Source: Raillietiella orientalis (taxonomy: Eukaryota). Taken from it: a DNA stretch of 64,000 bases. A program made the position numbers and the translations under genes. A model generated the notes under the pieces. That model saw nothing but the letters and a program-made list of their open reading frames with translations, did no database searches and had not been told where the DNA came from. Positions 1-64,000 of this stretch are shown here, one piece after another; positions within the stretch are counted from its first letter, which is position 1; every line of letters starts with the position of its first letter. Where the stretch lies: positions 682,001-746,000 of the forward strand of contig JAYWIR010000012.1 of NCBI GenBank assembly GCA_036172245.1. The letters are read 5' to 3'.

Positions 1-3000
1 CCCAGGGTGTTGAAAATTTCGGGAACCAACGGGCGGCTAAGTTTCGAACGAATCTTTCGCGGAGTCTGCTGAAAAAAGCTGTACGGATGCGCACATATTA
101 TATACGCATATTGCAAATGCAAGAAGAGCAGTATAGGTTGGATGAAGGCTCGAAAGCACAAGATGGTTGCCAAACACTGAAGACCTTTCTCAGCCACTCG
201 CTTGCTCGAATCCCATCATACATCAGCATATGAGGGATATTTCAGAATTTAACAGGAGTCGGAGAAAACACAGAAAAAAGAAACAGAGGTGGAACAGGGC
301 GACGTGGGCGAAATAGTGCGAAATTGATCTTTTCCTTAAAAGATGAACTTGTGTCTCTTTGCCTTAAAAAGAGATAACCCTCCTTTCTTCGCTGTTTACA
401 CAACGAAGGATGAACTTTGGTAGTTCGATTTCTCTGGTATATTAAAATGAAGACTTCAGCAAAGCTCGTAAATTTCTCTGGTAGGGATAAATCATAGGAA
501 AAACCAACGGCTCGCATGCTGAAATGTTGAAACGCTGATGCACCAACAGAACAACGCATCACACACAAAAGAAAGATTGGAGTTTGAGCCACAATCCGCA
601 TACACATTTATATCAAACATGGTGCATGCAAATGATGCTTTAATTTCAGAGGAACTGTAATAACAAAGGAAACTAAATCGAGGGGAAAGGGTCAAGTGAT
701 CCTCTGAAACGAGCACCTTTGAGAACGAAAACCAGAAAAAAAAATGATGATGATGATGACGACGACAAAATCAAGTTAAGCACACAGAAAAGCGTTCGTT
801 ATCCGCACCCAGCTCTGATCGCCCGAATTCAAACGTCGTCGGAATAAAGAAAGACAAATTCTTGCATCCAAGTGACTTTTCATAGCTCAAACTAGAATGC
901 GAAGCGATCCCCGTAACCGCAACCCTTTCTGAGAAACGAAACGCCACGACGAACACTCCGAAGTGTTCGACTTGATCGTTTGGAAGACGGGATGCCAGTT
1001 CCAGAAGAATCACTTTCCCACCCGGCTCTTAGAGGTTTTCGGTTTCCTCCATGTTATATTGCCAGGCACCGCAACTGCAGCGCTGAGCAGCTGTAGAGAA
1101 ACCTGACCACAACAAGCAGGGGCTGAGCACTGATTTCCCTTAAACCTTCCGCTCGTTTCGGTTGCTTCATCGGTGCGATCCTGTGAGCAAATTAGAATCC
1201 CTCAAGGGATCGGGACGCCAAGACTCCAATCTCGTCCTTCGCGTTTCGAGAAGCTCTCTCGAACATCCAAACGTACATGCATCCGTCAGCTTCCACGCGA
1301 AGATGCAGACAAGCTCCAAAACCAATCACATAACCCCAATGCGCATTGCCTCCACATGTCTTTGGCGTTTTGCTTGCAGTCCGCTGCAAGTTCCATGCAA
1401 AGTCAAGCCTTTCTCTCTCACACTTATAGACAGAATTTGCATTGAAAAAGATAATCCCCAGTTAATCACTGACCAAACCAATCGAATGCTCTTGACCAAA
1501 ACTCCATTCACATAACACCAAGTACGATTTCATTTACCAAGGATGAAATAATTCCTTGCTCGCTGTATGTGACAAAACAAATGAACACATGACTTGTCGG
1601 ATGAATAGCTAGCTATCAAGCTACCATCCTTCAACAAATCTAAAGAAAATCGTCGGTCCATTAGGATTAGCGATGGAAATTTGGATAGAAAAATTTTCAG
1701 CATCTTTTTTCATTAACTGCCTCTCCTAAGTTCTTGCACACCATTGAATTCCAAAAATTCTTGAAAACCGCATACGTTTCAGCTCTGCATGCTCAGGTGA
1801 AGCAAATGTATTTTTTTTTTTTTTAAGTCAATTTTCGAATCAAATTCTCGATTCTCGAAATCAACTTCTTTCTCCCTTTACCTTTTAATTAAAGAGAAAT
1901 GCGAACGACCGTTATCTCCAATTATTATTAAAGTGGCTGGTCACTTTCGTAAATCCACATCATAACCGCATGCACTCTGCAAAATGATTTACACGAAAAT
2001 TAATAGAGCGCAGCATAATTTATAGAAAAATATACACACGATAATGAAAAACAAAACCCCAAATTTTTTTTTTGATAAAATTGTGTACAGCGCAGCATGC
2101 TGAATGAATGTGTGGCACAACACAATGGCATCAAACCGTTGTACGTATGACCATTTTGAAGACGTGAATTCAATCTGCAATTTCACTGCAGCGTCCATCG
2201 AAAGGCTGCAGATGCAGCTGATGCTTTTCTTTCGATTTTGCTTGAAATAAAAAACCAACAACAGTTTGAAGGCATTTTGCTATCAGCGACGCCAAGTTAA
2301 AATTCGAAAAAAGATTCGTCTTCTGCTGTAAGCTTTGAATTAACGTCTCGACACAACTCAACGAAGCACAGAAAACACCAAACACCTCAACCAAACACCC
2401 ACTCCCGTACAGAATCGAATAGATTCTTATTTAGTGGCCAGCATCTGTGTTGAGATTCCTTGGGGCTTCTCCCGAAAGAAGTTCCTTTAGAGCTTTTCCC
2501 GATGGCACAATACCATACTTTATTTCATACCCGCGAGTAGGCTTTAGTCACGTGCATCTCAAAGTTTAGTTTGAAAAGAATTTAGTTCTAGAAGCATCTT
2601 CCATCTCTGCACTTCGCACTTCAAGGAATCAGTGAGTTTGTCAATTAGTTGAAGCAGCCCATTGGGTTTTTACATCCAACTGTCAAGAGTGATCCGTTCT
2701 TCGAAAATGTCCCATAGACCGACTTATTTCTTGAACTCAAACATTTGGGAAATCTTTATCATCCAGATCTTAAACTGTAACAAAGTCTTGTCTTGCAATA
2801 AGCAGCTGAATCTGCAATAAAGTCGCAGTGGGGAAATCGCAGTTCTTTCCTCACCACATCATCTGCCAATTACTTAAGTCTTCACAAGCAGAGAGTTCAT
2901 GACATCCATCTAGTATACAACACAGAATCTATGCAACCGTGCTGTTCTGCAAAATTCTAGGTAGACTTTGATTACAGGATCGACAGCATTCGTGCATCAC

Positions 3001-10345: not shown

Positions 10346-13300
10346 ACATTAGACACTCTTTAGAAAAATAAATTTCGAAAACAAAAAAAAAAAAAAAAAA
10401 AGGAAAAAGCGGAGCAATACTACATAAAGCAAAGGAACACTTTGATTCACATTTGTATCAAATTCTATGCAGCCTTTCCATTCCCGAAGAATGTGTCAGA
10501 TTACATGGATGCAAAAGGCAGTTTGCAACCAATTCTTATTATGGAAGGATGAACGAACAACGGTGTGGATCCGAAGATCCATTTCAAAGATGGGAGAGGG
10601 AGAATCCTTCGCACGCTCCACGGGAAACTGAAAGCATGTACTATTTTTGAGAACTTGGGGAGGCTTATTTTTAGATAGCAGCATCTTATTACTCTCAGAC
10701 TTGCTGTTGGAAAAGGACCAACAGAACTGAGTCAGGTGTATGGATTTCCTTCAATCTGCACACGTACTCACCTCTTCCATCCCAGATGTCCTTTTATGGC
10801 TCAAGGGGCTGGGCCAATAACGTGAAGCCTGCGAAACTTTCCGTGATTTAGTCACTGTTTGCAAGGCATGTGACAAAGGCTGATCCAGTTTCGGGTACTT
10901 ATGCCAAAATATTTGTGAATTTTAAATGTAGGTAGCCGAAGTTTCCTCGATTCTGATTTCGGCGACAGAGAACTTATTATCATTACGTCACTGGATAAAG
11001 TCTCGTCAAAGGAGAGAACGGAAAGCAGAAAGCGAGAAGAGTCCCCGAACATACAGGAACGTAGAGAAGAAGCAAGGAAGGAAACATTTGAATTTCTGAC
11101 AAGCATAACGCGGGCAAGAAGTTTGTAAGTTCTCCTCCAGTCCGTAGTCTCGTTGAGGAACGATCACATTTCATGAAAATCCTTTCCAGTGATCCAGAAG
11201 ATAGCTTTACTCAACCTTGAGATGAAATCTGCTGTGAATCATGTCCCAGATACTGCTTTCTAAGCATGGAGATGATCCAGTGAGTGAATAATAATGGAAA
11301 TCACAAGTTTTTTGAGCTGTGAAAATTGACGTGAAACGTGAAACATTGCCAAAATCGAATAGAAATTTTGCGATCGGATCGAAAAGGAAAACAAAACAAA
11401 ACAAAACAAAAAACAACAACAAAAAAAAAAACGGATGTTTGAAGTTTTTTTTACATTTGTGCCCCAAACTCATATTCAGAATAACCAAGAAAGTTACGAA
11501 TTAGGGAATCATCAAACCAGGTACATTAAAGTGACTTTAAAAAAAAAAAAAAAAAAAAAAAAAACCCAAAAAACCAAAAAAATGTTTTCGTAAGTTTTCA
11601 GATAAAAATTCTTGTTTGCGAAGGAATGATTTTTGCATAAAGTCTTCAAAGAAGTTTGGTGCAGACTCCATGCCTCTTTACGTTTCATGATGTTATACTT
11701 ATGGAATGTAAAGAAGTATGGAGTTTTCGTCAAAATAAGCGACGGCCTTTGATGTTAATCTGTGATCAAAGTCACAACGGCATGACGAAAATGATGTTTT
11801 ATGCAAACGGATCAGGCGAAGATCTCAATATGAAACGAAAGTGGTCAAATTACGAATTCGTGAAGTGTTTCCTCACAGAGCTGAAAAGTAAAGTGTGAAT
11901 AACTGATAAAAGATAAGTTTTATTTGATGTGAACTCGTGGGAATCGGATGCCTGAAGCGACATGCAAATCATTACCATGACACGGGAATAGTCATCACAT
12001 GAAAACAAAGACCGCATGCTTAGCCGAAAGATGAATGTTTTCCAGCTTTCAAGACAAAATACAAGATATGTATTTTTTTTTTTTCTTTCCCCCCCTTGAA
12101 ATAAAGATCTGAACGGTGCAATGAGTATGATTTTCGATGCATGATGGATTCGCAGAATAAGCAACTAACAAAAAAGTCACATTCTGAACCCAAGCTTGCG
12201 ATATAGAAGTGCGAAACCAGAAAAAAAAAAAAAAAAGAGGATAAAATCAAAAAATATGCAAATAGTGCACATGATTAAACACTGAATATTCGCTAGTGAA
12301 TCGTGAAAATCAAATTTCCAATGCAACACCCATATTCGAATGAATCCAACATCTTACAAAAAGACCAGAAGCATGACCGGGGTCAAAATCCGCCCTCACG
12401 TCCTTATCGATCTCAAAATGAATGGCATAGAAAATTCGAAAAAATTCATGAATTAAAAAGCATAGTAAGAGCAACTCGACTTCGCCCATGTCCTAGCAAC
12501 TCCTCTGATAATTTCGATGTTGCACCGCCCAAAACGCGGAATATTCCGTATTCTATGCAACTGAGGTAACTGTAATTTTATTCAATACAGTAAGTTCCAC
12601 AATTTTCTGCTTTCAAAGGACAAAAGTCTTAAAATTCAAACCCAAACTGAACATTGTAAAAAAAATCTGCGATACGCTTGAAGTGGAAATGAAAAAATGG
12701 TAGCTTAAATGTTGTACGACCAATAAGCGTTTAAGAATTCCAATTTATCAATACGTGCAAAAAATGCTATCCACGAAATCCACCTCGAAGGCTACAACTT
12801 TACAAATATGTAGAACATTCAGAGTGACACCATCATCCACAGAAACTCTGATTTAAACGAATCCATAAGTAAATCCATAAAGCCAAGATGAATCAAAGCT
12901 TACACAAATTACGTGCGATTAGCGCCAACTGTGTGTTCTTCTTTTCCTTCTCTCCTTCTATTTCATAATGGAGCTAGAGGGCGCATTTCAGCACAAAATA
13001 AATTGAGAAGAATATGTGAATTCGCAACAACCTTCCACAATTTCATGCTGTCGCCCATGCAAGCGATCAGAATATTTAACATGTGAAAAGTACGTGTCAC
13101 GTACGTAGTGAAAATAATGCCTGCATCTAAATTGAATAAAGCAACAATTTTTTCTTCCTTCCATGCAGACCGTGCAAATTTTCCATAGAAATGAGAGAGC
13201 TGGCTTCTTTGCACGTACCGACCAATATGCACGCAAACGAAACACAACACAGAATCCGGAGAAAGACACTGTCCAGACACCCTTACTTCCGGAAATCTTT

Positions 13301-35320: not shown

Positions 35321-38246
35321 GAGTCACAAGGATAAGAGTTGCGTGCTTTGTGCCGGTTTGCAAGCAGATGAAGAAAAAAACAAACGGTTTGCTGCTTTTG
35401 CGATTTCGCATCTTCATATGGGTTGCATTTCTAAAATCTTTATCAACCTGTATCCAATGAGAAGTGAAACCTCGTTTGATCATCAAGTGGTCCTTCTGCT
35501 GCTTCATTTGTTCGTACACATTTGTTACTGTGGAATGCTGAGTATCTTGCACTGAACATTGCCTCTGCACTCGCGGGTGCGAAGCTTATGGGAATTCCAA
35601 TTATTGGGAAATTAAAATGTGGACATGCATTTTGAATTGAATTTTTAAGATTCTGTATTAAACACTTGCGACACGATTGGATCACATTATCCTGATTCTG
35701 ATTCTGGTTTATGTCTCTTTTCCAGGTGTTTTTTTTCGCAAGGTAAGTCTTCAGCTAGAAACATCCGGGAAGTAAAGTTGTGATCAAGATGAGGGATCTT
35801 CATTTGTCATAGTAGCTTCTGTGTAGCTTGGTATAATGAAAAGACGCCGTGCTTTTTCTGTCGGAAGTAGTGCAAACTGGTGTCCTAATGAGATTTTTGT
35901 GTCGAAAGTTGCATTACTTGTTCAAGGTTTCCTTAGCATGAATGCATCCTCGATTTGATTCCACGATAAGCGTCGGAGGTGCACGAATCGCATGTAGAAT
36001 CGTCGGACCAATGCAGTGATCAGAGATTTCCTTGGTTTGTTTATTCTTGAATGAACTCGTTTTCCTAGTTATCTCGGAAAGAATCATTTCCGTGATAAAC
36101 CGCTGGCACAAAGCTCGTGAAGAATTCCGCATCTCAGCGAAACTTTAGCAATTACTACTTTTAATGGATCATGCACGCTCAAAACAACGAAAATGGAGAG
36201 CAAACCTTCGGTTAAGTCTTTTCCAGAGCTCAGTATAAAAGTAAAATGTTTCGGGCAAATAATGAGTTAACTGATAGTGTAACTTCGAAAATAAATTTCT
36301 GTAGCGTTTTCGGTCCGTGTACAATTAATTGAATTTCTCCTTTTTAATAAGTATACAATGCAGAAATCAATTGAATTGAATCTGAAAGGATGGTGTAAGA
36401 ATACTCGCAAAGGAACGGTTAGAGGGGTGATTCAAGGTGAAGAAGAAAATGTCGATCAGATGTAAGCACTGCAATAAACTTTATTTAATCACTTTCAGTT
36501 TTCCCATATCCCTAACTGTTTGAAGGTGTCACTGGTTACAGCATACAGGAAGCCCGAAATCGAAAATCACTTCTGTAGCTTTTCAGAATGCAAGAACTCT
36601 GAGCAAACTGGATTTTGACAATTTCCAAATCCGTTATTAGAAACCGATGTCTTAACAAGATGAATAAAGGCCAAGAAATTGCAACCGTGTGTGGTCAGAA
36701 TTTCGTTCTCAGACAAAGCATCCGTTTATTGTGGCGAATGCTTTTCAACTACACCAATCTCCCAGTATAGTAATGTGCCGATAATACTGTAGGATTTTGT
36801 ATCCGTACGTGCACGTGTACGTGCAGAAAAGAATTACCTAGGAATTCTTAGGAACACGCTAATTCCATTTGCAAAACTGAAGACACTGGAGATTGGATTG
36901 CGGTAATTCATCTAACAGAGCAGGCTGGTCATACACTGAACGTACACCGAACCCAACTCTCGTGTTGAATCAATGTGATGTTGAGCAGCAATCCCCCCCT
37001 TCGAGTATTTCTTTCCTTGTTTCTGTCTGTGTATCTCTTTCCCACAAGAAAAATGTTCGTTTATGTCACTAATGGTCATGTCATCTAGTTGAACAACCGC
37101 GGGCAGAACTTCCGAGGTCCGCCGGCTTGTTGGCTTGCTTGCGCAACACGCAAGCTGTGTCTTCGCGCGTCGAGCATGAGGATGCAACGCAGATAGATAC
37201 GAAAGGACGGATTCCTGCGTGCTGCACGGAATCGCAGTGCCGATGCACCCTTCCGCCTTATGATTGACGGTTTGCACGCGACCGCGCAGTCCAATGGTGT
37301 GAAGCCAGTGCAGCTGCAAAATCCTTTCTCGCAAGGGCATTTCAGATACAACGATGTCTAGAGGGTCCATGCCGACTATGACCTCCGCCCATCGGCAAGA
37401 CGGCTTTACGAAACTTTACAAGGGTTCTTTGTTTCCTGTCCTACCGTCGGCAGATAGCCTCAGGATTTTTTCCCTTATTATTTCTCTCAAGGTAGCACAA
37501 GAGAGCTCTCGGGTGAACGGGTTAACAGCTCGGTGCTGCTGACCGTTTCAAATGATGTCGGCGGTTTTTTCCTATTATCATCAGACAGTAGGCGGAAGTT
37601 GCAGGCGGACAATTTCCCCGCCTATTATCTGATGTCCAGATCGAAAGTGTCAACGAGTACATCGCGGAAGGTGTTTATCTGGTGCAGGAACGCTGAGGCC
37701 AGCCTCCACCACAGTTCCTGGAGAGCATCGCAGTCCAAAAACAGATGCGATGGGGTCGCCTTTGCCGACCCACACTTGCAGCAGTTCGGAGACGCTACTG
37801 AACCTGGAGACGAGGGTGTGCAGGCGCTCATTGCTCTGGAATCCCCAGTGCAGAAAGAGCGCTCACTCACAGGAACACGGAAGTGTTCCAACACGAGAGA
37901 GAAAGCACAAGTTCCCCGGAAGCAACACTCCAAAGTCCACTCCATCAAAGGAAGGAGTCCCGTCGCCAGAGTATGCAGCGTGGCAGGATCCACCAGTTCG
38001 CGTGTCTTCCAGCCACCAAGGAGAAAACTCCCTGCGAAGGTGCTGGATGTGAACGCGCACCTATTCGGTCGGCAGCTGTAGTCGGTTGCCCTGCAGGCAA
38101 ACAGCGCCGCGGCAAGGGGTGTTGTGGCCACTTTGCCGTGTCCTGCATCGCCACTTCCAGAGGTCGTGGGGTGCAAAGATCCTCCGGGCGCATTCCGTGG
38201 GATGCAGTCTAGGACTCAACAGTTTCCTGCCGCCTGACATCAAACC

Positions 38247-38435
38247 TGCGGAAGATTCTTCACGCAAGGCGGTCTGTATGTTGGTGGGCGTGATCGCCAA
38301 GCAGATGCTACATCCGCGCCATTGTCGCAGCCCTTTCCGTGATGGGATCTCGTTCGCAGCGAAGGGAGGCCGCCGGAGTGGACGGCTACGAGGAACCTCA
38401 AGGCAAAGTCCCCAGGGTGATCTCCTGCGAGCTTC
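38247..38435 (+). repeat. Left arm of a dispersed inverted repeat (LINE ORF2 C-terminal piece); partner at 40900-41132
   Basis: For example, TTCGCAGCGAAGGGAGGCCGCCGGAGTGGACGGCTACG recurs exactly as a reverse complement near 40988-41025. Confidence 0.85.
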
Positions 38436-40899: not shown

Positions 40900-41132
40900 A
40901 ATGCTGAAGATCACCCTGGAGACTTTCCCTTGCGGTTCCTCGTAGCCTTCCACTCATCGCTTCTCGGCCTTTTGGCTAAGATCAAAGCGTAGCCGTCCAC
41001 TCCGGCGGCCTCCCTTCGCTGCGAACGAGATCTTATCACGGAAAGGGCTGCGACAATGGCACGGATGTAGCATCTGCTTGGAGATCATGGCCACCGACAT
41101 ACAGCCCGCTTTGCGTGAAGAATCTTCTGCAG
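40900..41132 (-). repeat. Right arm of the dispersed inverted repeat, carrying a roughly 47 nt internal insertion
   Basis: Reverse complement of 38247-38435 at high identity by eye. Confidence 0.85.
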
Positions 41133-42619: not shown

Positions 42620-43250
42620 CACTTCATTGCGCACCATGCAGCAGGTTGATACCCTCCTCGCAAGGTCGTCTTTCCAGAGTGTAAGAAGCGCGCCGCTCCC
42701 TTTCAGGATCGCCCATGCGAGAAATCTGGAAGCGCCCATTCGGGATTAGGATGATGATAGTTTGGCCGTGAAGGAAATTTCGGCATCTCCATGCGCGTGG
42801 TAGATGTAGGTGGGTGCTGAGCGAGCGTCGGATGCTACGTGGAGCGCACATCTGTTGAAGGATGGGTTCTCCGCAGTAGGCATTGTGTACCCCCCTTGCA
42901 TGCCGATGTCAGCTGCAGCGGCTGTGCGAAGGTGCGATGATCGCTGTGTTGAGTTCTATCTGTTGGAGTGTGACTGCTGCTTCCTGCTAGCTGAAGGAAG
43001 CCAGAAAGAACGTGAATCATGGACATGCGTGATTTGCAACGAATTCAGTTTCATTTCATGGCAGTCGCGAACGACCTTCTGCAATCAATACAGGTTATGA
43101 ATGATTATTTCCTCTTTCGTGGGAATGAAATGCACTAAATACTTCCTTAGAAAGAAGGTACCGAAATACATATCTTCATCTATAATGTGAGGATCAACTT
43201 GGATTAGAACTTGGCATAGACCTCCTCCATGAGTCTGTGATTTCACCTGA
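42620..43250 (+). repeat. Duplicated block A (pepsin-like last exon plus 3' flank); partner at 61370-61990
   Basis: Shared strings such as ATCTGGAAGCGCC, GTGAAGGAAATTTC, TTGAAGGATGGGTTCTCCGCA, GCGAACGACCTTCTG, GATTTCACCTGA. Confidence 0.9.
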
Positions 43251-53539: not shown

Positions 53540-54738
53540 CGTATTACTGCCGGGAATCTGGCAGTGCGGCCCCCTTCTGGCTTGCAGGTGGCGCGTTCTC
53601 GTTGGGGGAAGGCATTTCACGGACTTCCGTGGCACCCCCTATGCCCTCTTCACCTTGCGGCGGGAAGGGCGGGGCTGTCTCCAAGGAGGAGTCCTGTGAG
53701 CCTTCCTCCATCTTTGGGTCAGAACCAGCGTCGTTCCCCCCTTGCAGGGACACTTCCCTGTGGACCGCTTCTACATGGAGCGCGGTCTTGTGGAGTAGTC
53801 CCTGCACGGGAGGCGACGGTTCTGCGTTCGCCTCTACCTCAGAGGTCGGGCAGAGCGATTCTTTCGCGGTAGGCCCGCGTATATCGTCCCGAGCGACTCT
53901 CGCGGCCGCGCGCGTCATCACGCTCGGGCGCTTTCCAGAGGCTGGCGAGAGGTTTGCAGGGCTGCTGCCAGGAGCCGCTGGTGATACGCCGTCGAGGTCA
54001 ACAACCTTGACGACCCGCATGTTGCAGGTCCCGTCTACCGTGCTCTCGGTCGCGGATGGTGTGATCTTTCTCCGCAGGAGAGACGGTGCGCTGAACCGCA
54101 GCTACCGCGTTTTTTATTTTCGCGAGTCGCGGAATGACATTGCGCGCGGCCTTTCTTTTTCCCATTTCTGTTTTTTCGGGCAGATGACCTGCACCCAGCC
54201 TGTTTCCTTCTCCCCCTCCTTGACTCCCACATGGTTGCCTGCCTCAAGTGCAGGCGTGGTGGATGCCGCTGGTTGCGGGTAACCTTCCGGAACCGCCTCC
54301 GATGCAAAATCGGCCGCGAGCGCTCGGTTTTTCCCATTTTTTGTATTCTTTTTATTTTTTTTGTTTCTGTTTTCTTTTTTCTTCATCTTTGTGGCTGACG
54401 CATGTTTAACCAGGTAGAGGGCACACGAACTGGATGTGTCCCTTCGCGCCACAACGGTAGCATTCGATGTCGGGACACCCCCTCTTCCGTTTCCGAGACT
54501 TGCCACAGTGGGCGCACACAAGGGGCCTCCTCGAGCACCAGACGCCGACGGGTTCCCTGCCGACGTCCAATCTGCGGGGTAGGACGCTACCCCTTCCACG
54601 GACGGTAATGAGGGCCGCTGACCAGACCTGCTGATACCTGGTGTGCAGGGAAGACGCAGGGCTTCGCCCACAGTGCGTGCACCGCCGCGAACTCTTCCAA
54701 TTTCCGATGGACCGCCTCCTAGGTCGTCCTCACCGTCA
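53540..54738 (-). mobile_element. LINE ORF1 fragments, including a degenerate zinc knuckle
   Basis: VCAHCGKSRKRKRGC near 54475-54520; low-complexity ORF1 tail abuts the APE start. Confidence 0.6.
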
Positions 54739-54956
54739 AAAGAAGACGGGCAGCTTGGGATAGAAAAATTCTGGGCTGGAGCTTTAAGGAGAGAGGTGCT
54801 TGAAGGAGATGTTGAAACGGGATCTTTAATGGCTGGTCAAAGTGTTGGCATGGTTGATAAAGAAAAGCCCGTAAAAGAAGTGATAGATGTGTTAGTTCAA
54901 CAGGCAAACAATTATATCTAAAAAAACGAATAAAAGTTCTACGTGCGAAGAATAGT
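54736..54956 (+). pseudogene. C-terminal fragment of a bacterial nitronate monooxygenase / FabK-like flavin oxidoreductase
   Basis: IEKFWAGALRREVLEGDVETGSLMAGQSVGMVDKEKPVKEVID; the TAA at 54919-54921 looks premature because the frame continues KTNKSSTCEE*. Confidence 0.8.
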
Positions 54957-54957
54957 A

Positions 54958-55125
54958 AGGAATGTGATTTGTCGAAATTTGTTCACGATAACTCTCGGCA
55001 TAATTTAAAGCAAAAGCGTACTGATTGTACGAACAATCTAGAAAAACTTGAAGAGCTGAGAAAAGTTTTCTCGCTGCCAAATGTTCCGAAGCGCATCGAG
55101 GTTTATGATAATATCTGGAAATCAG
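54958..55125 (+). pseudogene. uvrC: Internal fragment of excinuclease ABC subunit C
   Basis: NLEKLEELRKVFSLPNVPKRIEVYDN, then after a small deletion ISGNQ (UvrC RIExxDNSHIxG motif). Confidence 0.85.
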
Positions 55126-55287
55126 AGAGAGTGTTGGACTCACGGTCAAGTGTAAGGTAGTTTAGCCCTGCATTTTTCAAAAATTCAATTCCTCTTGATT
55201 ATTTCACTTAATATTTTACTTGAGATTTGCTTCTGTTGTTCTACAAGCTTGCCTGGCGAATTTTCAAACCATTTAAGGGATTTATCG
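55123..55287 (-). pseudogene. uvrA: Internal fragment of excinuclease ABC subunit A
   Basis: DKSLKWFENSPGKLVEQQKQISSKILSEIIKR / frameshift / IEFLKNAGLNYLTLDRESNTLS, the segment preceding the UvrA LSGGE signature. Confidence 0.85.
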
Positions 55288-55387
55288 TTGCGGAAACTTT
55301 TCTCCTTCCAACTCTTTTATTTCCTTATATTTCATCCTTTCAAATATTTGATCTTACTCACCTTCTCACAATTTTGAAAGAGGTCTA
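55286..55387 (-). mobile_element. Left end of an IS5-family insertion sequence (terminal repeat plus transposase start)
   Basis: TAGACCTCTTTCAAAATT end, then ATG at 55335 giving MKYKEIKELEGEKF, which resembles Wolbachia IS5-family transposase N-termini as I recall them. Confidence 0.6.
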
Positions 55388-55532
55388 TTCACAATTCACA
55401 CATACGTTCGGGAATGTGGGATTTGTGCAAATGCTATCCTTCAGTTGATTTTTACATTGAAAAAAATTCCTGACCGAGGTGATTTTTTGCATATAATTCT
55501 AAGTATATTAATAATTGATTAAAGAGGTAGTT

Positions 55533-55896
55533 ATGCCAATTTTTAAAAGTCATCGTGGTCAATTCCACAAAATGAACACTGCACTTCTCCGTACGTCGCA
55601 ACGGTGTTACTGCTACTACTTTTCAGCGAGGTGTGGAAATGCATGATGAAGAGATTACTGCTATAAAAAACACTTCCTGCTCTAAAACAGGGGTTCTACC
55701 TAATCTCATGAATAAAATTATTCTGAGTACTGAATCTAGGTTGTCGCCACTTCAATTAGCGATAATGTGTGGTTGGAAAGAAGTCATCATCGAATTAATT
55801 AAAAAAGGAGCGAACCCTAACAAAACACTTGGTGTACAAGGCATTACTATTCTTCAACTTATGTGTACCGCTGCTGTTTTTAAAGATAAGCAATAG
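55533..55896 (+). pseudogene. 5' fragment of a bacterial ankyrin-repeat gene
   Basis: Shine-Dalgarno-like AAAGAGGT before the ATG at 55533; frameshifted; LSPLQLAIMCGWKEVIIELIKKGANPN ankyrin repeat. Confidence 0.65.
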
Positions 55897-56049
55897 GACA
55901 AATCAAAAAGAACGTTTTTCGCCTATAATTGGGGATTTAGGCGAATTTATAATATGCCCTATTTGTCTTCCCCATAGCGAAGGTTGGTATTAGATTCAAT
56001 TTTCATAATTTTCCCGTCGACTGACAAGACGGTATCTTTTTTCTCTTCC

Positions 56050-56335
56050 TTACATCAACTTTTCCTCTATCAGATATTTAATTGGATAGAAGTTACCATT
56101 TTTAGCAGCATAGTGCAAAGGTGCTTTATTATACTTATCTCGAGCATGAACGTTGGCTCCTTTCTTCTCTATCAGATATTTAACTAAATCTAAATTACCG
56201 CTTTTAGCTGCACGGTGCAAAGGTGTTTGATTATCCTTATCTTTAGCATTAACATCAGCTCCTTTCTCTTCTATCAAGTATTTGACTAAATATAAATTAC
56301 CAGCTCCAGCAGCAGAGCATGTAGGCGTTTGACTA
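56050..56335 (-). pseudogene. Fragment of a bacterial ankyrin-repeat gene (about three 102-nt repeats)
   Basis: AAGAGNLYLVKYLIEEKGADVNAKDKDNQTPLHRAAKSGNLDLVKYLIEKKGANVHARDKYNKAPLHYAAKNGN. Confidence 0.85.
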
Positions 56336-56683
56336 TACCTACCCCAAACTTGACAAACTTTGGAGCAATAGCATCAGATTGACAATTCATCGAGCACTTA
56401 AAAACAAAGGATTCACAAGAAAAAAAAGACCTACGGACATAAAGAAAGAAGTGAGGAAAAGCGAGCTCAGTTTGCAAAGATTATAGCAACAAAAAATCCT
56501 GATGATCTCATGTACATAGATGAATCAGGAATAGACGACACTGAAGATAACGCTTATGGATATTGTAGAAAAGGAGAGAGGTTTCATGCGCTAAAATCTG
56601 GAGTGAATAGTCAGCGTATTAGCATGATTGCAGCGTTAAATAAAAAGAAAATAATTGCCCCGTTGACCTTTGAAGGATAATGT
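56335..56683 (+). mobile_element. IS630-family transposase fragment
   Basis: IHRALKNKGFTRKK / -1 shift at A8G 56420-56428 / KTYGHKERSEEKR...LMYIDESGIDD..YGYCRKGERF...RISMIAALNKKKIIAPLTFEG. Confidence 0.88.
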
Positions 56684-57140
56684 CAGTGAGGTGCACGATC
56701 AGGGAGAGGTCCTCTGTTATGGGGAAGAGCTGGCGCCTTCCGATCATGGTCGAAGTTCGCAGTAATCACTGGGTTAGGGTCGCGTCCTTGAAAGCCTGAC
56801 CTCGACGGCCCTTCCCCCGGCCAGAACGGAGAGCGCGCAAAGCTCTTCCGGTTTAATTTGCAGTCACTGAAGCTCCCTCGAGAAGGAGAGCGCGACAGCA
56901 AGGTCATACAAAGGGCCTACCTTATATCTCAGGCATGGATTATAGGCCTGCGCGTTGATAGCAGCCGCAGGCAAGGGTGCCGCAGCCACCATGCTCCAAG
57001 TCTTCCTGCTGGGGGAAGACGATCCTTCTTTGGAGAGGACAGCGTTCACCTCGTTCTCCTCGTTCTCCCCGGGTGGTGAGGCTTCTGCCCCTCTTCCCAA
57101 GGGCGCTGATAGGCTTTGAGGACATCGGGTTGCCGCCAAA
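56682..57140 (-). mobile_element. LINE ORF1 N-terminal fragment, collinear with the piece left of the endosymbiont insert
   Basis: KTWSMVAAA, LQIKPEELCALSVLAGGRAVEVR, LSLIVHL. Confidence 0.55.
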
Positions 57141-57299
57141 CACTATTCCACACTTCACGGGTTGGTGACCTCGCGGAGAGCTCAGAGGCACGTTCGACCG
57201 GCAGAGAGCAGTGATCGCAAACATCGGTTGCATCGGTGCCATAGCCACAGCCAGCCATGTGTTGGAGTCAGATTTGTAGTGAAGAGAGGCCACCAGCAT

Positions 57300-60200
57300 G
57301 GAAGGAGTCCTCATGAGGACAGTAGCAAGATCCCCTCATCTGCCAGAAGTCCCAAGAGAGATCGCCACTGTTCAGAGCCGCTTCAAGAAAGAAAGGAACG
57401 CCTATAGCCGAAGACCCCTGCCCCACCCTCCCGTCTTTTTGTTAATTTATTTATTGTTCCCTCCCTCCGTTCTCAACTTGCTGTAGACCGACCTTCGTGC
57501 CGGTGATTAAACCGAAAGTTGTTCTTATTTTTTTTGGCGAATCTCGTTTTTGAGTGGTTCCTCTCCCTTCTTACTAGTATTTTTTTGAAAATAAATGTAT
57601 CGACATCACCGGGTGAAAACACCATGAGCATCGATAAGTTCAGTACCAGGGGGAGGCAGCTTAGTTGCGAAGCACTGAAAGAATTGCGCAGGCAGGACAT
57701 CCTTACCTAATGCCTTCCATCCCCACTCTGCCACGTTGGCGGAAGAAACTTCCCCCGTCGCGGATGGTTCTTCGGCACATGCGCGTTCTTCCTACTCGAT
57801 TGCGGGTCGCCTTCCAAGGGTAGGAGCCACACCGCCCCCTTTCGACGGCGCCGTTGCGTCCAGCGAAGACAAACAGCACGTTACAGTGCAGCGTCCGTTA
57901 ACTGGGCCGAACATTTCCGTCCTCGGTCGTCGAGCGGATGAGCTGCTCCAGAATTCCAGGCCTGACGCTCAACACACTCACTCCGTTTTCTCGGCGTGCA
58001 GGAGGCTTAGCCTCTGGAGAAGGTGTGCGCCTACAAAGAAGTTCCGAAGTCGACCACTATTTCTCCATAGTCACTCCGAAACAGGTGCGAGGGACATCGG
58101 ACTGCAAAAGCGCGAGGTTGAGCACTCCTCTTTGTCCCGGTCTCGAAGTTCCTGTGTGAAGAAGTCTGTGAAGTACTGACGAAGATGTTCGACCTCCTCC
58201 GGATGGCTGAAGCGGCATCCACCATATGCTGTTGGAAGGTCTTTTATCGGGAGGCAGTGGTTCCAACTCCAGTCTGGAGTAATAGTATGACTCCCAAATC
58301 CTCCTCCTTCCTCCAGGAAAACACGTGAGCGCAAGATCCTTCCATGCCAGGTTTGCTGGCAAGCAGGTTGCACTCGCGCACGGAAGCGCACAACCACGCT
58401 CACCAGCGACCTTCCTTTCTTCAAAAGTTCTTTCGTCTCCTACATCCCCTAATTTTGTCTACCTCGTCCCCAGAGGGACGAAAAAGCGGACGAAGGACTT
58501 TCATAAATTGCCTTCTGGGATAAATGAAGGTCTAAAATCCAGTTGAAGTACTTCTGCACTCCCCGTCGAGATAGCGGCGCACCTCTCCTCACTCTGGAGC
58601 CAATGCAGCGGGGATGGGGAACGTTAGCCATCGCAGCGAAGTATTGGAGCATCTAACGGTGCGCTCGCGCACGTTCCCTCTCCAGCTGTATAGTCCGGAC
58701 AGAACAACTTGCGTCCCACCTTTTGTGTCAAGTCGAAAAAGTAAGAAAGTGCAGGGTACTCCACGGACGCAAGGCCAACTTGCAAAAGGAGAGCGACTGG
58801 ATGACCTATTCTTCTCCAGCTCTAGAGCTTGGCTAAATAAAGCAGTTTGCACGTAAGCGAAGATAAAGAATCGCACCTCAGAAAAGTGGAACTGCCAGCA
58901 TCTCGCGATGTACGCTAACTGCTTTCTGCGAAGGATCTAGGAGAGTCCAGACATTTGAAGGTGGGCAGAACAGATCCTCTCGCTGCAACGCCGCGCTTGC
59001 TGATGAGGACGGTGGGCTGCAGCCAACTGTAGAGATCGGAAATCCTTTGCGAGATGGCGGGAAGCAGGAAGATCACGAGTGGTTAAATCATGAGGCAGAT
59101 AACCAACGATGCAATCCCAAGTTCCCTTCTACAAGGACAACGACGTTGTCAGAAGCTGCTCAGTATTCTCAATGAAGACCTGGAGTGTCCCCAAAGTTCG
59201 GGAGCAGAAGCACTCTCCTCCAGAGTGGAAAGGGTCCGCACTTCTGCTATTGCACTGGGATCTTTCTTGCTACTCCCGCCAATATCAGTGGACACTGGGG
59301 AGTGCGAACCCGGGCTGACACAGGTGCTGGGAGAGGGAAGCTCTTTCGCAAATGATTGTAGATTGTGCTGCTTTACGGCCCCCGTGGAAATGTTATGGGA
59401 CGACCGTGAGAATCCCGAATAACATCCTCAGAGATGCTGCGGAACTACTCTTCCCTCAGGGTGCCCTACCGCCAGTATCAGCGTTAGCAGTACTTTGGGA
59501 TTGTACGCGCCTGGAGTGAGGTTAAAAGGGAACCATCAAGAGAATCCTCATGGCAGCATCTGGTTGGAATCGGGACAGACATCGACGAATACATGCAAAG
59601 GACGCCCTGCGACAAGTGATCTCATCTCGGTCCCCCCAGATTTTATGGTTCGGATTTCATAAACTCCCTTTCTTTACTTTTACTTTACTTCTCTACTCCT
59701 CAGCCGTGGGGAACCTCTCCGCTCTATACACCGAAAACCTGTGAAAGGTCCGTGAACAAATAAGAGTTTGGTAGGATCACTTGTCCTATCACAATTAATG
59801 AGCTATTTTTAATTGCAATAGTCCCAGCGTGTCTTGGTGAAAAGTAGAAGGCGTCTGCTGTTCGCAAGCAGGTGGACGTTGAAGCACCTTGCGACCAGAT
59901 GTGCTGCTCTTGAGCCGGAGATCGCGAGCAATCAGCTTCAAAAAACGTCGAAAAATTTCCCTCTTTCGGAGCGCCGCTCAAAGCATCTTGAAGAGTAAAC
60001 CCTCCAGTCGACGGTCACGATCGAGTCTGACCAAGTTACGACAAGTTGACCGCTCTCGTCCTTCCCCATCCAAACAAACATTGCTCACGGGTAATGCCAA
60101 CATTTTACGCGACTGTACACCCTCCTATGGCGGCGCGAGTCCCGTTGTGAACCTCCTGTAGGAGCACCAAGCTGAAAACAGAGCACCGCTCCTCTTTTCA

Positions 60201-61200
60201 TCGTCGTGCAGCCCGTCGACATTCCGTCGGGAAACTGAGACGACCCTGAGGACGGGATTGCCTACATCCGTGGCTGAGGAGATTGTGGCGTATTTCCCGC
60301 ACCGTGGTGCAAGTGACCTTCCTGCAGCACGGATGACGTTGAAGCGCCTTCTCTGCTTTTTGTCTCCGTACTGCACATTGCCCATTTCTCGGGGGCGAGG
60401 ATCACCTCCGGATTTGTTGTAATGAGAGGCTTGAGAACCCGCACCTTTGAGAGCGGCGCACCCTTTTTAGTTCTTTGCTGACTGAGACCCCAGACCGGGC
60501 AACAGCGGTGGGACGCAAGAAAGACTTTTCACCTGCCGGCGGATACGCCAAGGACCCGCCCAACTGGACGGCGCATGCAAAACAGACAGAACAGCCTTCT
60601 GCCTCATGCATGAAAACGGCTAAGCCCTGCCTGGAAGTGAGCGGAACTCACGTATCAGGTAAGTCCAAGAGAACACAATTTCCAAAGACATGCACAAGAG
60701 ACGGTGCGCTAAATGACGCGATTTTGTGACCCAACCACCTTGTTTAAAGATGGACGTCTATTCGTGAAATATCTCGAGCGTTTGTAGGACCTCACCCCAG
60801 GGTCGCCTTGAAAGTCCGGGGGCACAGGGCACAGCGCCCAAAAAGTAGCTTTGAATTCCGAATAAACGACAGCTGGATGAGAGGAGACAGGAGGCAGCCG
60901 TAAAAACCTTTCCACGAGGTTTCCATCTCAGGCCGAATTCGGGGGAAAAGACTTTTCGTGCGAATCTTCGTTCGAGTTCGCTGTTGGCTTCTGCAAAGCC
61001 ACGGAGAGCAGAAATGCCTCTGACTGCTGGGAATCAGTTCGAAGAAGAGTTTCTGGCTTGCGCTGGCGGCCTTAAGACTGCGACCTCTGCATGTGGAACC
61101 AAAAGATCAGGGTTGACATCCCGCTCTGGAAAAAATGGAAGCAGAGAATGGGGATGCGTCGTGAGTTTCAAGTTCCTCACGCTGGATAATTCTGGTTGGC
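57300..61200. mobile_element. Further scrambled L1/Tx1-clade fragments
   Basis: Minus GIR*GCP (about 57700); minus decayed RT core CLDSPRSF...CVRGVPCTFLLF...FA(D)D-like (58500-59100); plus zf-RVT HRCWEREALSQMIVDCAALRPPW with T-rich tail (59200-59700); minus ORF1-like piece (60200-60450). Confidence 0.7.
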
Positions 61201-61821
61201 CTCGTTTGACATAGGGTGAGGCAATGGCGGAAGTTGGAAACCGTATGCTCCCGCTAACTGGTCGGAATTGGAACTAGACCATCTATGGTTCTTCAAGATA
61301 TCAAGTAGCTCTGAAGTTTTCCCCTTTGTTCCTATGAAAATAAAAAAAATTCTCTTTCTCAGAAAAGACTGCATTGGTGCCATGGATCTGGTACATATCC
61401 CGCTTGGAGATGGTAGCCTCTCCTTGGTGTAAAAAGCGTGCTGCTTCTTTCCAAGATCGCCAATCCGAGAGATCTGGAAGCGCCAATTGGTGTTTCGTAT
61501 GATGATAGGTTGGCTGTGAAGGAAATTTCCACGTCTTTGCGTGCGTGTAGGTGGTTGCGGAAAGAGCGTCGCATGCCACGTGAAGAGCGCATCTCTTGAA
61601 GGATGGGTTCTCCGCATCAGGCCTTCTGTGCACCTTTTGCATGACGATGTCAACTGCAGTGGCGCTGTGAAAATGTCATCATCGCTGTGGTGGACTCCAT
61701 CCGCTAGCGTGTAACTGTTGGTCTGAACTGAAGGAATCCAGATTGAATCAGCATCACGAGCATACATGATTTACGACGAATTCACTTTCATTCCATGGCA
61801 ACTGCGAACGACCTTCTGTTA

Positions 61822-61984
61822 TCAATTCAGGTTATAAACGATCATTTTTTGCTGCGCTAGAAAGAAGCGCACTGCATACTTCTGTACAGAGAACGTACCT
61901 AGATACACAGCCTCATCAGGAAATTTTTGAAAGATGCTGGACCGCAATTCCGCATAGACCCTCTGCATCACAGTTTGATTTCAC
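61822..61984 (-). pseudogene. Paralogous last exon of the pepsin-like gene, +1 frameshift, upstream exons missing
   Basis: cag acceptor then VKSNCDAEGLCGIAVQHLSKI / PDEAVYLGTFSVQKYAVRFFLAQQKMIVYNLN*; 163 nt versus 162 nt in the intact copy. Confidence 0.85.
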
Positions 61985-62269
61985 CTGAGATCGCCGAAAA
62001 AGCCAAGCGCAATTTTGTACAACCAGAGTCGTACACATTACCAGCAGGAACGATGGATGAGTGGAACAAGAGAGATGTTGCATTAGAGCGAAGGCAAGAA
62101 GTTGAGCTGACAGTGAGGGATTGAGCTCTTCAGGCGCAGCATCCAGGCGGAAGCGACAAGCACTCGTACAACATGTGAATACACTCGCTTTACCAAAATT
62201 TACAACTCGCTTCGTATCGAAAGATACACGAACCGGTTCGTGTTCAGTGTAATTCTTCAGGATAGGGGG

Positions 62270-63145
62270 CACCCCGGGATGAGGGGGTTCGCCCTATGAA
62301 TCCAGGAAAGGCTCGGAGTCCGTTCCTCTCACGCTTGGGGAGCGATCTCCCCTGGACGAAGGGGATCGCACCTCCCACCCTGGTTGTCTCCGAAGGGGAA
62401 CCCCGATGGGAACCTCCTTCCTCATTCTCTCCGGAGGGACGTTCCCTGGGAGGGGGGTGGTCCTCTCCATTTCAACTTCTCCGAAGGGAACCCGGAAAGG
62501 ATCCGCTTGTAGGAATTTCTTCTCCGGAGGGAACCTGCAAGGAAACCGCTCCTGTTCACTCCTCTGAAGAGAACCCCGAAAGGACGCTTCCGAAACTCAG
62601 AAGGGGTTCTGCAGCTTCCCGCAGGGAATCGCTCCCGCTTGCTCCCTTGCACTCTGTGAAGAGGCAACGACTCGGAGGGTCCCCCGAAACAGGGGGGTCC
62701 TCTCCTTTGAATAACTGGAGAGGTTCCCGTGAGGGCCCTTGCTCCATCTTGAAACCGGAAGGGTCTCCCGGTGAGGGGGGTCCTCTCTCCGTTGTACGAC
62801 CGGAGGGGGAACTCCCCACTCCTTTATTCGTGGGAAGACCCGGAGGTCAATTTCCCATTGTTCCGTCCTTCATCGGGGACCTCCGGCTTAATCCACCGCC
62901 GGTGCCACGCCCGAATGTCTCGGCCAGCCAGCGCCATTGCAGGAGAAACTCGGAACTCGACGACGCAGTGGCGTCAGAGTTTCTGCCGGAGTATTCGAAC
63001 CTGCGACGCATGGTGTCACGCGCGGAAGCCTTAACCACAAGGCCTCCGGTTCGTGTTTTGGGAGAAGGGGATGTCAACCACCTCAGTTACCTTCAGATAC
63101 CCATTCTCCTCATAAAGATTGTGGCCTCGACACGCCAGCCGTTCT
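62270..63145. repeat. GC-rich insertion with degenerate internal repeats
   Basis: Recurring TCTCCGGAGGGA, CTCCGAAGGG and GGGGGTCCTCTC motifs; lies between duplicated blocks A and B. Confidence 0.5.
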
Positions 63146-64000
63146 GAGGAGCCGACTATAAGCGGAGATGGGTGATAAAAGGAGCACACGCCACAAACTT
63201 TCCACGAAAACATCCCTTGAACGATGCGCAACTAAAAATGGAATTCAATGCTGTGTCTTGCGGCTTCTTCAAAGAAAAAGTCAGTGTGGATCACGAAGAT
63301 TTCCCCTTAAAAACTTAATCTCGACTCTGCCGCTGCTCCTTGAGCTCTTTCTGGAAAGAGAACCGGATGAGTACTTTGGACATGAACATTCGAATTGTAG
63401 GCTCCAGCGGCAGCTCTTTCCAGACTGAATGGGCTACGAACGGAAAGTCTTCCCACAGATTCAACTTCGACTTGGAATGGTTCGCAGGACAATGGACTTC
63501 GGTTACAAGGAAGGGTCGAATTTCTTGCGCTTGAACTCGGTCCTCAAATTGTTCGTGGATGCTCGAGGAAACGCGTGTTGAGGAATGAAATCGTTAGAAC
63601 GGCTACCCAGCAAAGTGCACTGTTCAGACGCGCTAAGGAGGAGATCATGCTGATCAGCTGTCGCAGGGAGGGGGAGAAGGGGAACACGACATTTAGGTAT
63701 GGCGTTTCCCATCTCATTCCCTGTGGGGATGTCATGACTTCACCAGCAACAAGAAAAGCTCTTCATGAACGGCAGTCGAGCTCATCAGCAATAGAATGAC
63801 GATGAAAAGTATTCCTGCTCTATCTGCGGAAAAGAATCAAGAGGGAGCTGCAACCAACATGAAGATTTTCTAATGATGAGATGGTGTTTCGAGATCGTAT
63901 CGATGAATGCAGCTAGCGGTTGCCCAGCATCTCACTGGTATCCCAGCACCGCACAGAAGGTATCAGCTTTCTCAACACTAGAGATCCGTTCATGGAGCAA

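Follow-up and report, generated by a model that had tools for sequence, protein, structure and literature searches.

A stretch of 64,000 bp from the Raillietiella orientalis genome assembly GCA_036172245.1 (contig JAYWIR010000012.1, positions 682,001 to 746,000; hereafter the window, with all coordinates counted from its first base) carries at 54737-56685 a block of DNA that is composed of pieces resembling the genome of the bacterial symbiont Wolbachia. The GC content of this block is 36.4%; in the adjoining 2 kb it amounts to 59.4% on the left and 54.2% on the right. We have little doubt that the block is a decayed insertion that resulted from DNA transfer from symbiont to host, i.e. a nuclear Wolbachia transfer (NUWT) in an animal chromosome. 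The host is a bilaterian animal, because a mir-1 gene is present in the window: the mir-1 precursor at 11659-11730 (+) was the sole Rfam match within it (RF00103, E 1.5e-8; score 54.2 bits, gathering score 45.6).

Composition of the block

The block was searched against five Wolbachia genomes and subsequently against 60 genus representatives, of which 59 matched it at E<=1e-25. Short queries, protein queries and local alignments were used to resolve the individual pieces. At least eleven pieces, each 38-340 bp long, could be distinguished in this way; they occur in both orientations and are joined end to end with no host DNA separating them. By comparison, the parts of the window outside the block (1-54700 and 56700-64000) gave no match at E<=1e-6 to the five Wolbachia genomes. 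The pieces and the two host flanks are listed below in their order along the window; identities are to Wolbachia and refer to nucleotides where amino acids are not named.

54647-54736: host left flank, GC-rich; a public contig joins this segment straight to 56686-56735
54736-54921 (+): 3′ end of a nitronate monooxygenase (NMO) gene, last 61 codons; 86-91%, 85-87% for amino acids
54922-55124 (+): internal part of uvrC, about residues 341-410; 77-83%, 75% for amino acids
55123-55294 (-): internal part of uvrA, codons about 431-484; 82-89%
55293-55396 (-): left end of an IS5-family element, terminus and first transposase codons, about 104 bp; 88-89%
55387-55424 (-): scrap of a comF-family phosphoribosyltransferase gene, 5′ part, 38 bp; 80-84%
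55422-55586 (+): intergenic DNA downstream of dut and the first 18 codons of a hypothetical membrane protein gene; 85-91%
about 55594-55893 (+): internal part of a Wolbachia ankyrin-repeat gene, start approximate; 72% for amino acids
55889-55993: part of the multi-copy intergenic repeat Y, about 125 bp at full length; up to 88%
55990-56047: part of the multi-copy intergenic repeat Z, about 140 bp at full length; 91-92% to the copies in genome G041
56053-56335 (-): three tandem 102-bp ankyrin repeats; Pfam Ank_4, 94.7 bits
about 56337-56686 (+): internal part of an IS630-family transposase gene (HTH end, DDE start); 88% to genome G029
56686-56812: host right flank, GC-rich; a 207-bp public contig spans 56606-56812

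A first-pass annotation, made from the sequence alone, had described the block as a patchwork of at least seven endosymbiont fragments. All seven that it named (NMO, uvrC, uvrA, the IS5 end, the two ankyrin pieces and IS630) are present in the order and orientation given there; the comF scrap, the piece from downstream of dut and the repeats Y and Z had been missed. The symbiont origin that it proposed, here specified as Wolbachia, holds for nine of the eleven pieces with 83-92% nucleotide identity to Wolbachia genomes and for a tenth, the plus-strand ankyrin piece, which has a Wolbachia match as protein only (72% of amino acids). It does not extend to the minus-strand ankyrin piece, whose Wolbachia matches reach at most 58% amino acid identity and which is matched by insects, fungi and many other bacteria as well. 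Homology gives no donor for this piece, and that it is bacterial we infer from its composition and context only.

All coding pieces are truncated, as had been stated previously, but the further statement that most of them carry stops or frameshifts needs to be restricted. Stops are found solely at or near the junctions, and one clear private frameshift was detected, at about 55184-55190 in the uvrA piece, which blastx aligns in two frames; the reference open reading frame (ORF) for this piece is UvrA according to NCBIfam. In the NMO piece the stop sits at the junction, three codons ahead of the stop in the Wolbachia genes, and the Pfam NMO match to this piece is only 19.9 bits, under the cut-off of 28. 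The uvrC-like frame at 54924-55124 shows 75% amino acid identity to the 606-aa UvrC of Wolbachia pipientis (E 8e-19), and the 6-bp deletion that it contains near 55112 is in frame.

Among the pieces derived from mobile elements, the IS5-family end matches many copies in five genomes (G056, G047, G053, G048 and G009), and its source is a multi-copy element of about 918 bp. In one reference copy (L046) the two ORFs had transpos_IS5_4 as their best family with 43.9 and 75.6 bits, below the cut-off of 140 because the frame is split; matches of the same ORFs to DDE_Tnp_4, DDE_Tnp_1 and HTH_Tnp_4 were above the respective cut-offs. The IS630 piece matched Pfam DDE_3 with 36.2 bits (cut-off 28.6) and NCBIfam transpos_IS630 with 41.5 bits, the latter being below the whole-protein cut-off of 100 because only a fragment is present. 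A frame change in the IS630 piece also occurs in a Wolbachia copy (L066, G048:C1:354455-357781, there at 1428-2205 (-)). The transposase of that copy lies in two overlapping frames, and the split falls at an A-run in precisely the way it does in the window; this shared split may be a programmed frameshift or a family-wide lesion.

The comF scrap was found with 80-84% identity over 36-41 bp in at least eleven genomes (E 2e-5 to 0.017 per genome). All three source loci examined have one and the same gene context, and the gene belongs to the ComF family. For the neighbouring piece, dut was identified in the context of locus L040. Repeat Y gave ten matches in genome G032. At the protein level the plus-strand ankyrin piece corresponds, with 72% identity, to residues 73-172 of a protein of 567 aa that is encoded by the Wolbachia of Kerria lacca. 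The sole DNA match of this piece in the 60 genus representatives was a chance-level one of 29 bp (E 0.007), and the protein query gave a weak match in one of them. A plasmid collection searched with the block returned no match. Four ankyrin genes of Wolbachia phage WO were obtained from a phage collection, with 68% identity over 11% of the query, and were set aside as generic ankyrin similarity.

Source loci and donor lineage

It had been proposed that the block is not one transferred segment and predicted that its fragments, once mapped on a single genome, would fall at widely scattered loci, and both points are supported. In G032, a genome in one contig of 1,451,416 bp, the NMO, uvrC, uvrA and dut-downstream pieces map on mixed strands at 387.5 kb, 892.3 kb, 124.7 kb and 1345.3 kb, respectively. 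The corresponding positions in G014 are 419.9 kb for NMO, 851.3 kb for uvrA and 171.3 kb for the dut-downstream piece. Across the Wolbachia genomes examined, the distances between single-copy pieces mostly amount to hundreds of kb, and the closest pair among the matches listed consists of NMO and uvrA at a distance of 15 kb in G044. About 16 genomes allowed us to place both uvrC and uvrA, and in these the two are located on separate contigs or far apart. Among the matches listed for the 60 genus representatives, no alignment crosses any junction and no two pieces are joined, nor was the same fragment order found in any of these genomes. A search of metagenome contigs for the uvrC/uvrA junction pattern, which was an exact-match search of low sensitivity, gave no matches either.

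Several loci at which pieces occur near each other were considered. An IS630 copy lies 2 kb from uvrA on the same strand in G002 (contig C5); it was rejected as a pre-existing arrangement because uvrA itself is intact there, with the IS630 copy on its upstream side, and because IS630 occurs in multiple copies. In G029, G038, G003 and G002 a copy of repeat Y follows uvrA after about 0.65 kb, and in G009, G052 and G058 comF is situated about 0.6-0.85 kb downstream of it; these neighbours were weighed as possible signs of a single local source fragment. Neither the Y nor the comF copies near uvrA are in an order that is collinear with the window, and the Y copy adjacent to uvrA in G038 is 81% identical to the window piece compared with 88% for the best copy elsewhere. 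The site that corresponds to the comF scrap is about 2.2 kb from that of the uvrA piece (G009:C1:279098-281276, G052:C1:611331-613744 and G058:C1:411544-413954). In the window the two pieces are 93 bp apart, with their order reversed relative to these three genomes. If the donor had the order of these genomes, the proximity of comF and uvrA could point to template switching inside a single donor fragment, for which the neighbourhood of Y and uvrA is a further lead.

Best matches of the uvrA, dut-downstream, Y, Z and IS630 pieces all fall within a set of genomes consisting of G002, G003, G014, G029, G032, G038, G041, G043 and G044, which includes the Wolbachia of Penenirmus auritus (a louse), Tettigetta isshikii (a cicada) and Paracimex. 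Those members that were included in a concatenated tree (G002, G003, G032, G041 and G044) form a clade, which we take to be supergroup F, and a uvrA tree groups the set with the exception of G014, G043 and G044. The NMO and uvrC pieces are not decisive in this respect. The trees were midpoint-rooted and the long branch of the window makes its exact placement unreliable, hence the affinity is read from the uvrA tree and the identity ranks only. Taken in this way, the matches are consistent with an origin of the pieces from one donor lineage.

Junctions, host site and decay

Junctions were read by aligning each piece with its best relative past the breakpoint, which was possible on both sides for eight of them. 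Seven of the eight share 2-10 bases, in line with the suggestion of the first-pass annotation that the fragments were concatenated by end joining; according to our own rough estimate, two or more shared bases would be expected in about one fifth of random blunt joins. The exception is the junction between host and NMO with one shared base. Proceeding from there to the right, an A-rich overlap of about 5-9 bases lies between NMO and uvrC, CA (55123-55124) between uvrC and uvrA, GA between uvrA and IS5, about 10 bases that match imperfectly between IS5 and comF, 3-4 bases between comF and the dut-downstream piece, TTAG between Y and Z, and up to AATG between IS630 and the host. The overlap of uvrC and uvrA had earlier been given as CAG (55123-55125), which the alignment corrects to the two bases stated. 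At the junction of the minus-strand ankyrin piece and IS630 (56336-56360) there is in addition a short direct duplication, CAAACTTGA / CAAACTTTGG, which may be a stutter of the kind seen at polymerase-mediated joins or may be due to chance.

Public Logan contigs that cover parts of the locus come from one low-depth DNA run, which may be the source of the window assembly itself and is thus not an independent proof; a search for sequencing runs containing the stretch listed this one and none of RNA. Both junctions with the host are present in the window, and the 207-bp contig spans that of IS630 and the host with one difference. A 151-bp contig skips 1949 bp where it joins 54647-54736 to 56686-56735, with seven letters in between, and shows 13 differences in 140 bases (about 91% identity). 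To judge from these differences, the contig is most readily interpreted as a paralogue of the host site that lacks the insert (an empty copy). When the seven intervening letters are compared with the last bases before 56686, AATG is common to both and is followed by three transitions; given this resemblance the target site was probably not deleted. A third contig of the same run consists of IS630-like sequence and is 90% identical.

Decay of the insert was assessed by counting private changes in the NMO, uvrC and uvrA pieces at sites that are invariant in all of 17-21 Wolbachia references. The window differs at 19 of 345 such sites (5.5%). By codon position the private changes number 6/129, 10/150 and 2/63 for positions 1, 2 and 3, whereas the variable sites of Wolbachia itself number 50, 32 and 120. 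The flat distribution over codon positions indicates that the private changes accrued without purifying selection. Changes from AT to GC furthermore outnumber those from GC to AT by 14 to 3 (binomial p 0.013), which is the direction expected in the GC-rich context of this host and not in the AT-rich Wolbachia. The flat codon pattern and the push towards GC together argue that the private changes arose in the host nucleus. The insert is old, and in the concatenated tree the terminal branch of the window has a length of 0.159 compared with 0.001-0.09 for the references. The record of a past or present infection that had been proposed for the block can therefore be narrowed down to a past one by this neutral, host-type change of about 5.5%; the part of the claim that concerns a present infection is not carried by it.

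Private change is not evenly spread over the three pieces, amounting to 9.5% in uvrC, 2.3% in NMO and 5.0% in uvrA, and six of the eleven changes in uvrC affect codon position 2. Over 54922-55112 the uvrC piece has thus about 2-4 times the private change of its neighbours. This excess could stem from an older copy, from error-prone synthesis during joining or from chance and, if real, suggests that not all pieces are of the same age.

Formation of the block and relation to known systems

We consider one repair event, in which short, degraded bacterial fragments were end-joined to each other and into one break, to be the most plausible origin of the block and would put its probability at roughly 60%. 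This reading is based on the small size of the pieces and their narrow size range, on the fact that they lie in both orientations and are not separated by host DNA, on the few bases shared at their junctions, on the 38-bp filler and on the single clean indel relative to the empty copy. DNA of lysed Wolbachia, already in the form of short fragments, would have reached a germ-line nucleus, where end joining of the non-homologous or microhomology-mediated type would have ligated the fragments to one another and into a single double-strand break, with the shortest pieces such as the comF scrap serving as filler. The break would have been located in a GC-rich, apparently repetitive and non-coding host region beside the possible remnant of a zinc-knuckle retroelement, and the insert would afterwards have decayed neutrally under the mutation pattern of the host. 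A more specific version is a long shot in our opinion, namely that the DNA was shattered and stitched in one step, that the spectrum of 38-340 bp reflects the degradation state of symbiont DNA upon arrival at the nucleus, and that joining was polymerase-driven and primed by microhomology rather than a simple ligation.

Several points weigh against a single event of this kind or limit how it can be read. The search of the 60 representatives scored five candidates per genome, and 58 further matches lie beyond those listed. The donor strain is absent from these representatives, and breakpoints and overlaps were consequently read on relatives that are 8-17% different. Four junctions beside the two ankyrin pieces are unreadable since there is no donor DNA for them. 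Overlaps are expected at deletion junctions too and do not alone separate one-step stitching from the whittling down of a larger insert. The contigs of the public run leave the left junction and the interior (54770-56461) uncovered. Finally, the private change of uvrC (11 of 116 sites) differs from that of NMO and uvrA combined (8 of 229; Fisher p 0.026), and this counts against a single event because uneven divergence is not predicted by it.

It is conceivable that a large Wolbachia insert, measuring from tens of kb to a whole genome, was whittled to 1.95 kb by deletions and some inversions, but we regard this as unlikely. Large NUWTs are known, and older inserts are described as “fragmented by neutral genomic processes” in the relevant passage of PMC12693587. 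Such deletions would leave microhomology at their junctions as well, and in some genomes (e.g. G048 and G001) NMO and uvrA lie 15-80 kb apart in the order and orientation of the window. However, at least ten deletions of 15 kb to hundreds of kb, plus inversions, would be required and would have had to leave remnants of about 340 bp at most. In G032 the five single-copy pieces are not collinear with the window in either order or strand, and the 62 kb of flanks contain no other DNA similar to any of the five Wolbachia genomes searched. Successive captures at one fragile site, or the re-copying of older nuclear inserts, would yield pieces that differ in age, which is what the higher private change of uvrC relative to NMO and uvrA would look like, and the changes in uvrC are not concentrated at third codon positions. 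The p value is modest though, comes from one of several possible comparisons and relates to about 116 sites in uvrC; moreover, each later insertion would have had to strike a target of less than 2 kb, inside or at its edge, whereas the empty-site copy differs by a single clean indel and pieces are not separated by host DNA. Repeated insertion of this sort therefore appears rather improbable to us.

Two further explanations place the origin of the patchwork outside the host chromosome. Wolbachia genomes are rich in insertion sequence (IS) copies, short repeats and gene fragments, and the IS5 piece stops where the element naturally terminates, as it would at a real bacterial insertion site, all of which would fit a degenerate stretch that pre-existed in the donor bacterium and was moved as one segment. 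Such a donor would need to carry extra scraps of the single-copy genes uvrA, uvrC, NMO and comF, while the 60 representatives provided no junction-crossing alignment, uvrC and uvrA are apart in about 16 genomes and the uvrC/uvrA pattern was without an exact match in the metagenome contigs (a search of low sensitivity, as stated above); we rate this explanation as very unlikely. An assembly chimera, or contamination with reads of a living Wolbachia, could be invoked because only one public run contains any part of the stretch and because that run does not reach the left junction and the interior. Yet assemblers do not stitch scattered scraps of 38-340 bp together via overlaps of 2-10 bp, a short-read contig runs over the right junction with one difference, the private changes are neutral and GC-ward and are accompanied by a frameshift, and the boundaries of the insert coincide with those of the empty-site copy. 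An artefact is thus hardly credible. The preferred reading remains the joining of many short fragments in one repair event.

The kind of transfer observed here is well known; the fineness of the shredding is unusual. In the pertinent passages of PMC12693587 and PMC4046930, NUWTs range from a few hundred bp to near-whole genomes, and no strong evidence of function is reported for them. The block resembles the NUWTs of arthropods and nematodes in being Wolbachia DNA inside host nuclear sequence that is truncated, pseudogenised and neutrally evolving. It differs in that it is not one collinear fragment but is composed of at least eleven scraps of 38-340 bp from scattered loci within 1.95 kb. A word search of open-access text revealed no description of such fine-scale stitching for Wolbachia.

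Parallels are also found elsewhere. PMC6215612 terms those organelle insertions “complex” that are composed of multiple fragments. Like the block, complex nuclear insertions of mitochondrial or plastid DNA (numts and nupts) consist of several donor fragments that are not contiguous; there the fragments were linked up either before they entered a single break or while they did so, which is attributed to end joining. The donor of the block is different, namely not an organelle but a bacterial symbiont, facultative or obligate, whose genome measures about 1-1.8 Mb. Transgene integration sites typically show microhomology and short pieces of filler DNA, and exogenous fragments are linked there to one another as well as to a break in the chromosome. 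Injected DNA usually ends up as a concatemer, according to PMC7145541. Unlike transgene concatemers, the block goes back to a natural germ-line event, is made of heterogeneous fragments of one bacterial genome and is old (about 5.5% private change).

The block is thus a molecular fossil of a past Wolbachia infection. Its short-overlap junctions, the 38-bp filler and the apparently intact target site show how bacterial DNA enters an animal chromosome, by the same logic as in complex organelle inserts and transgene concatemers. In annotation, blocks of this kind are to be masked as dead DNA and treated neither as bacterial genes nor as contamination. The block has no demonstrable function. A bolder and improbable reading, which goes back to the first-pass annotation, is that it might feed a hypothetical small-RNA pathway directed against Wolbachia or its mobile elements, since it is located in a repeat-rich region and contains pieces in both orientations.

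The surroundings of the block look like decayed repeats, since Pfam, applied to 148 of the 153 ORFs in the flanks (37-64 kb) that measure 75 aa or more, recovered a zinc knuckle only and no recognisable gene. The zinc knuckle is of the CCHC type (zf-CCHC, 23.2 bits, cut-off 20.8) and is encoded directly to the left of the block in a minus-strand frame at 54409-54729, which is possibly a decayed retroelement gag. The window as a whole shows a sharp shift in GC content, with 30-45% in the first 37 kb and mostly 45-60% in the remainder, and the AT-rich part (1-37000) is without a match in the five Wolbachia genomes. Two inverted repeats of 145 nt (38246-38390 and 40988-41132), which are 93% complementary and enclose about 2.6 kb, may represent the terminal inverted repeats of a DNA transposon. 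Near them, at 37628-38215 (-), a weak zf-RVT match was obtained in one of the domain searches only. A host repeat of about 500 bp is present in two copies, at 42664-43180 and 61412-61917, with 75-77% identity.

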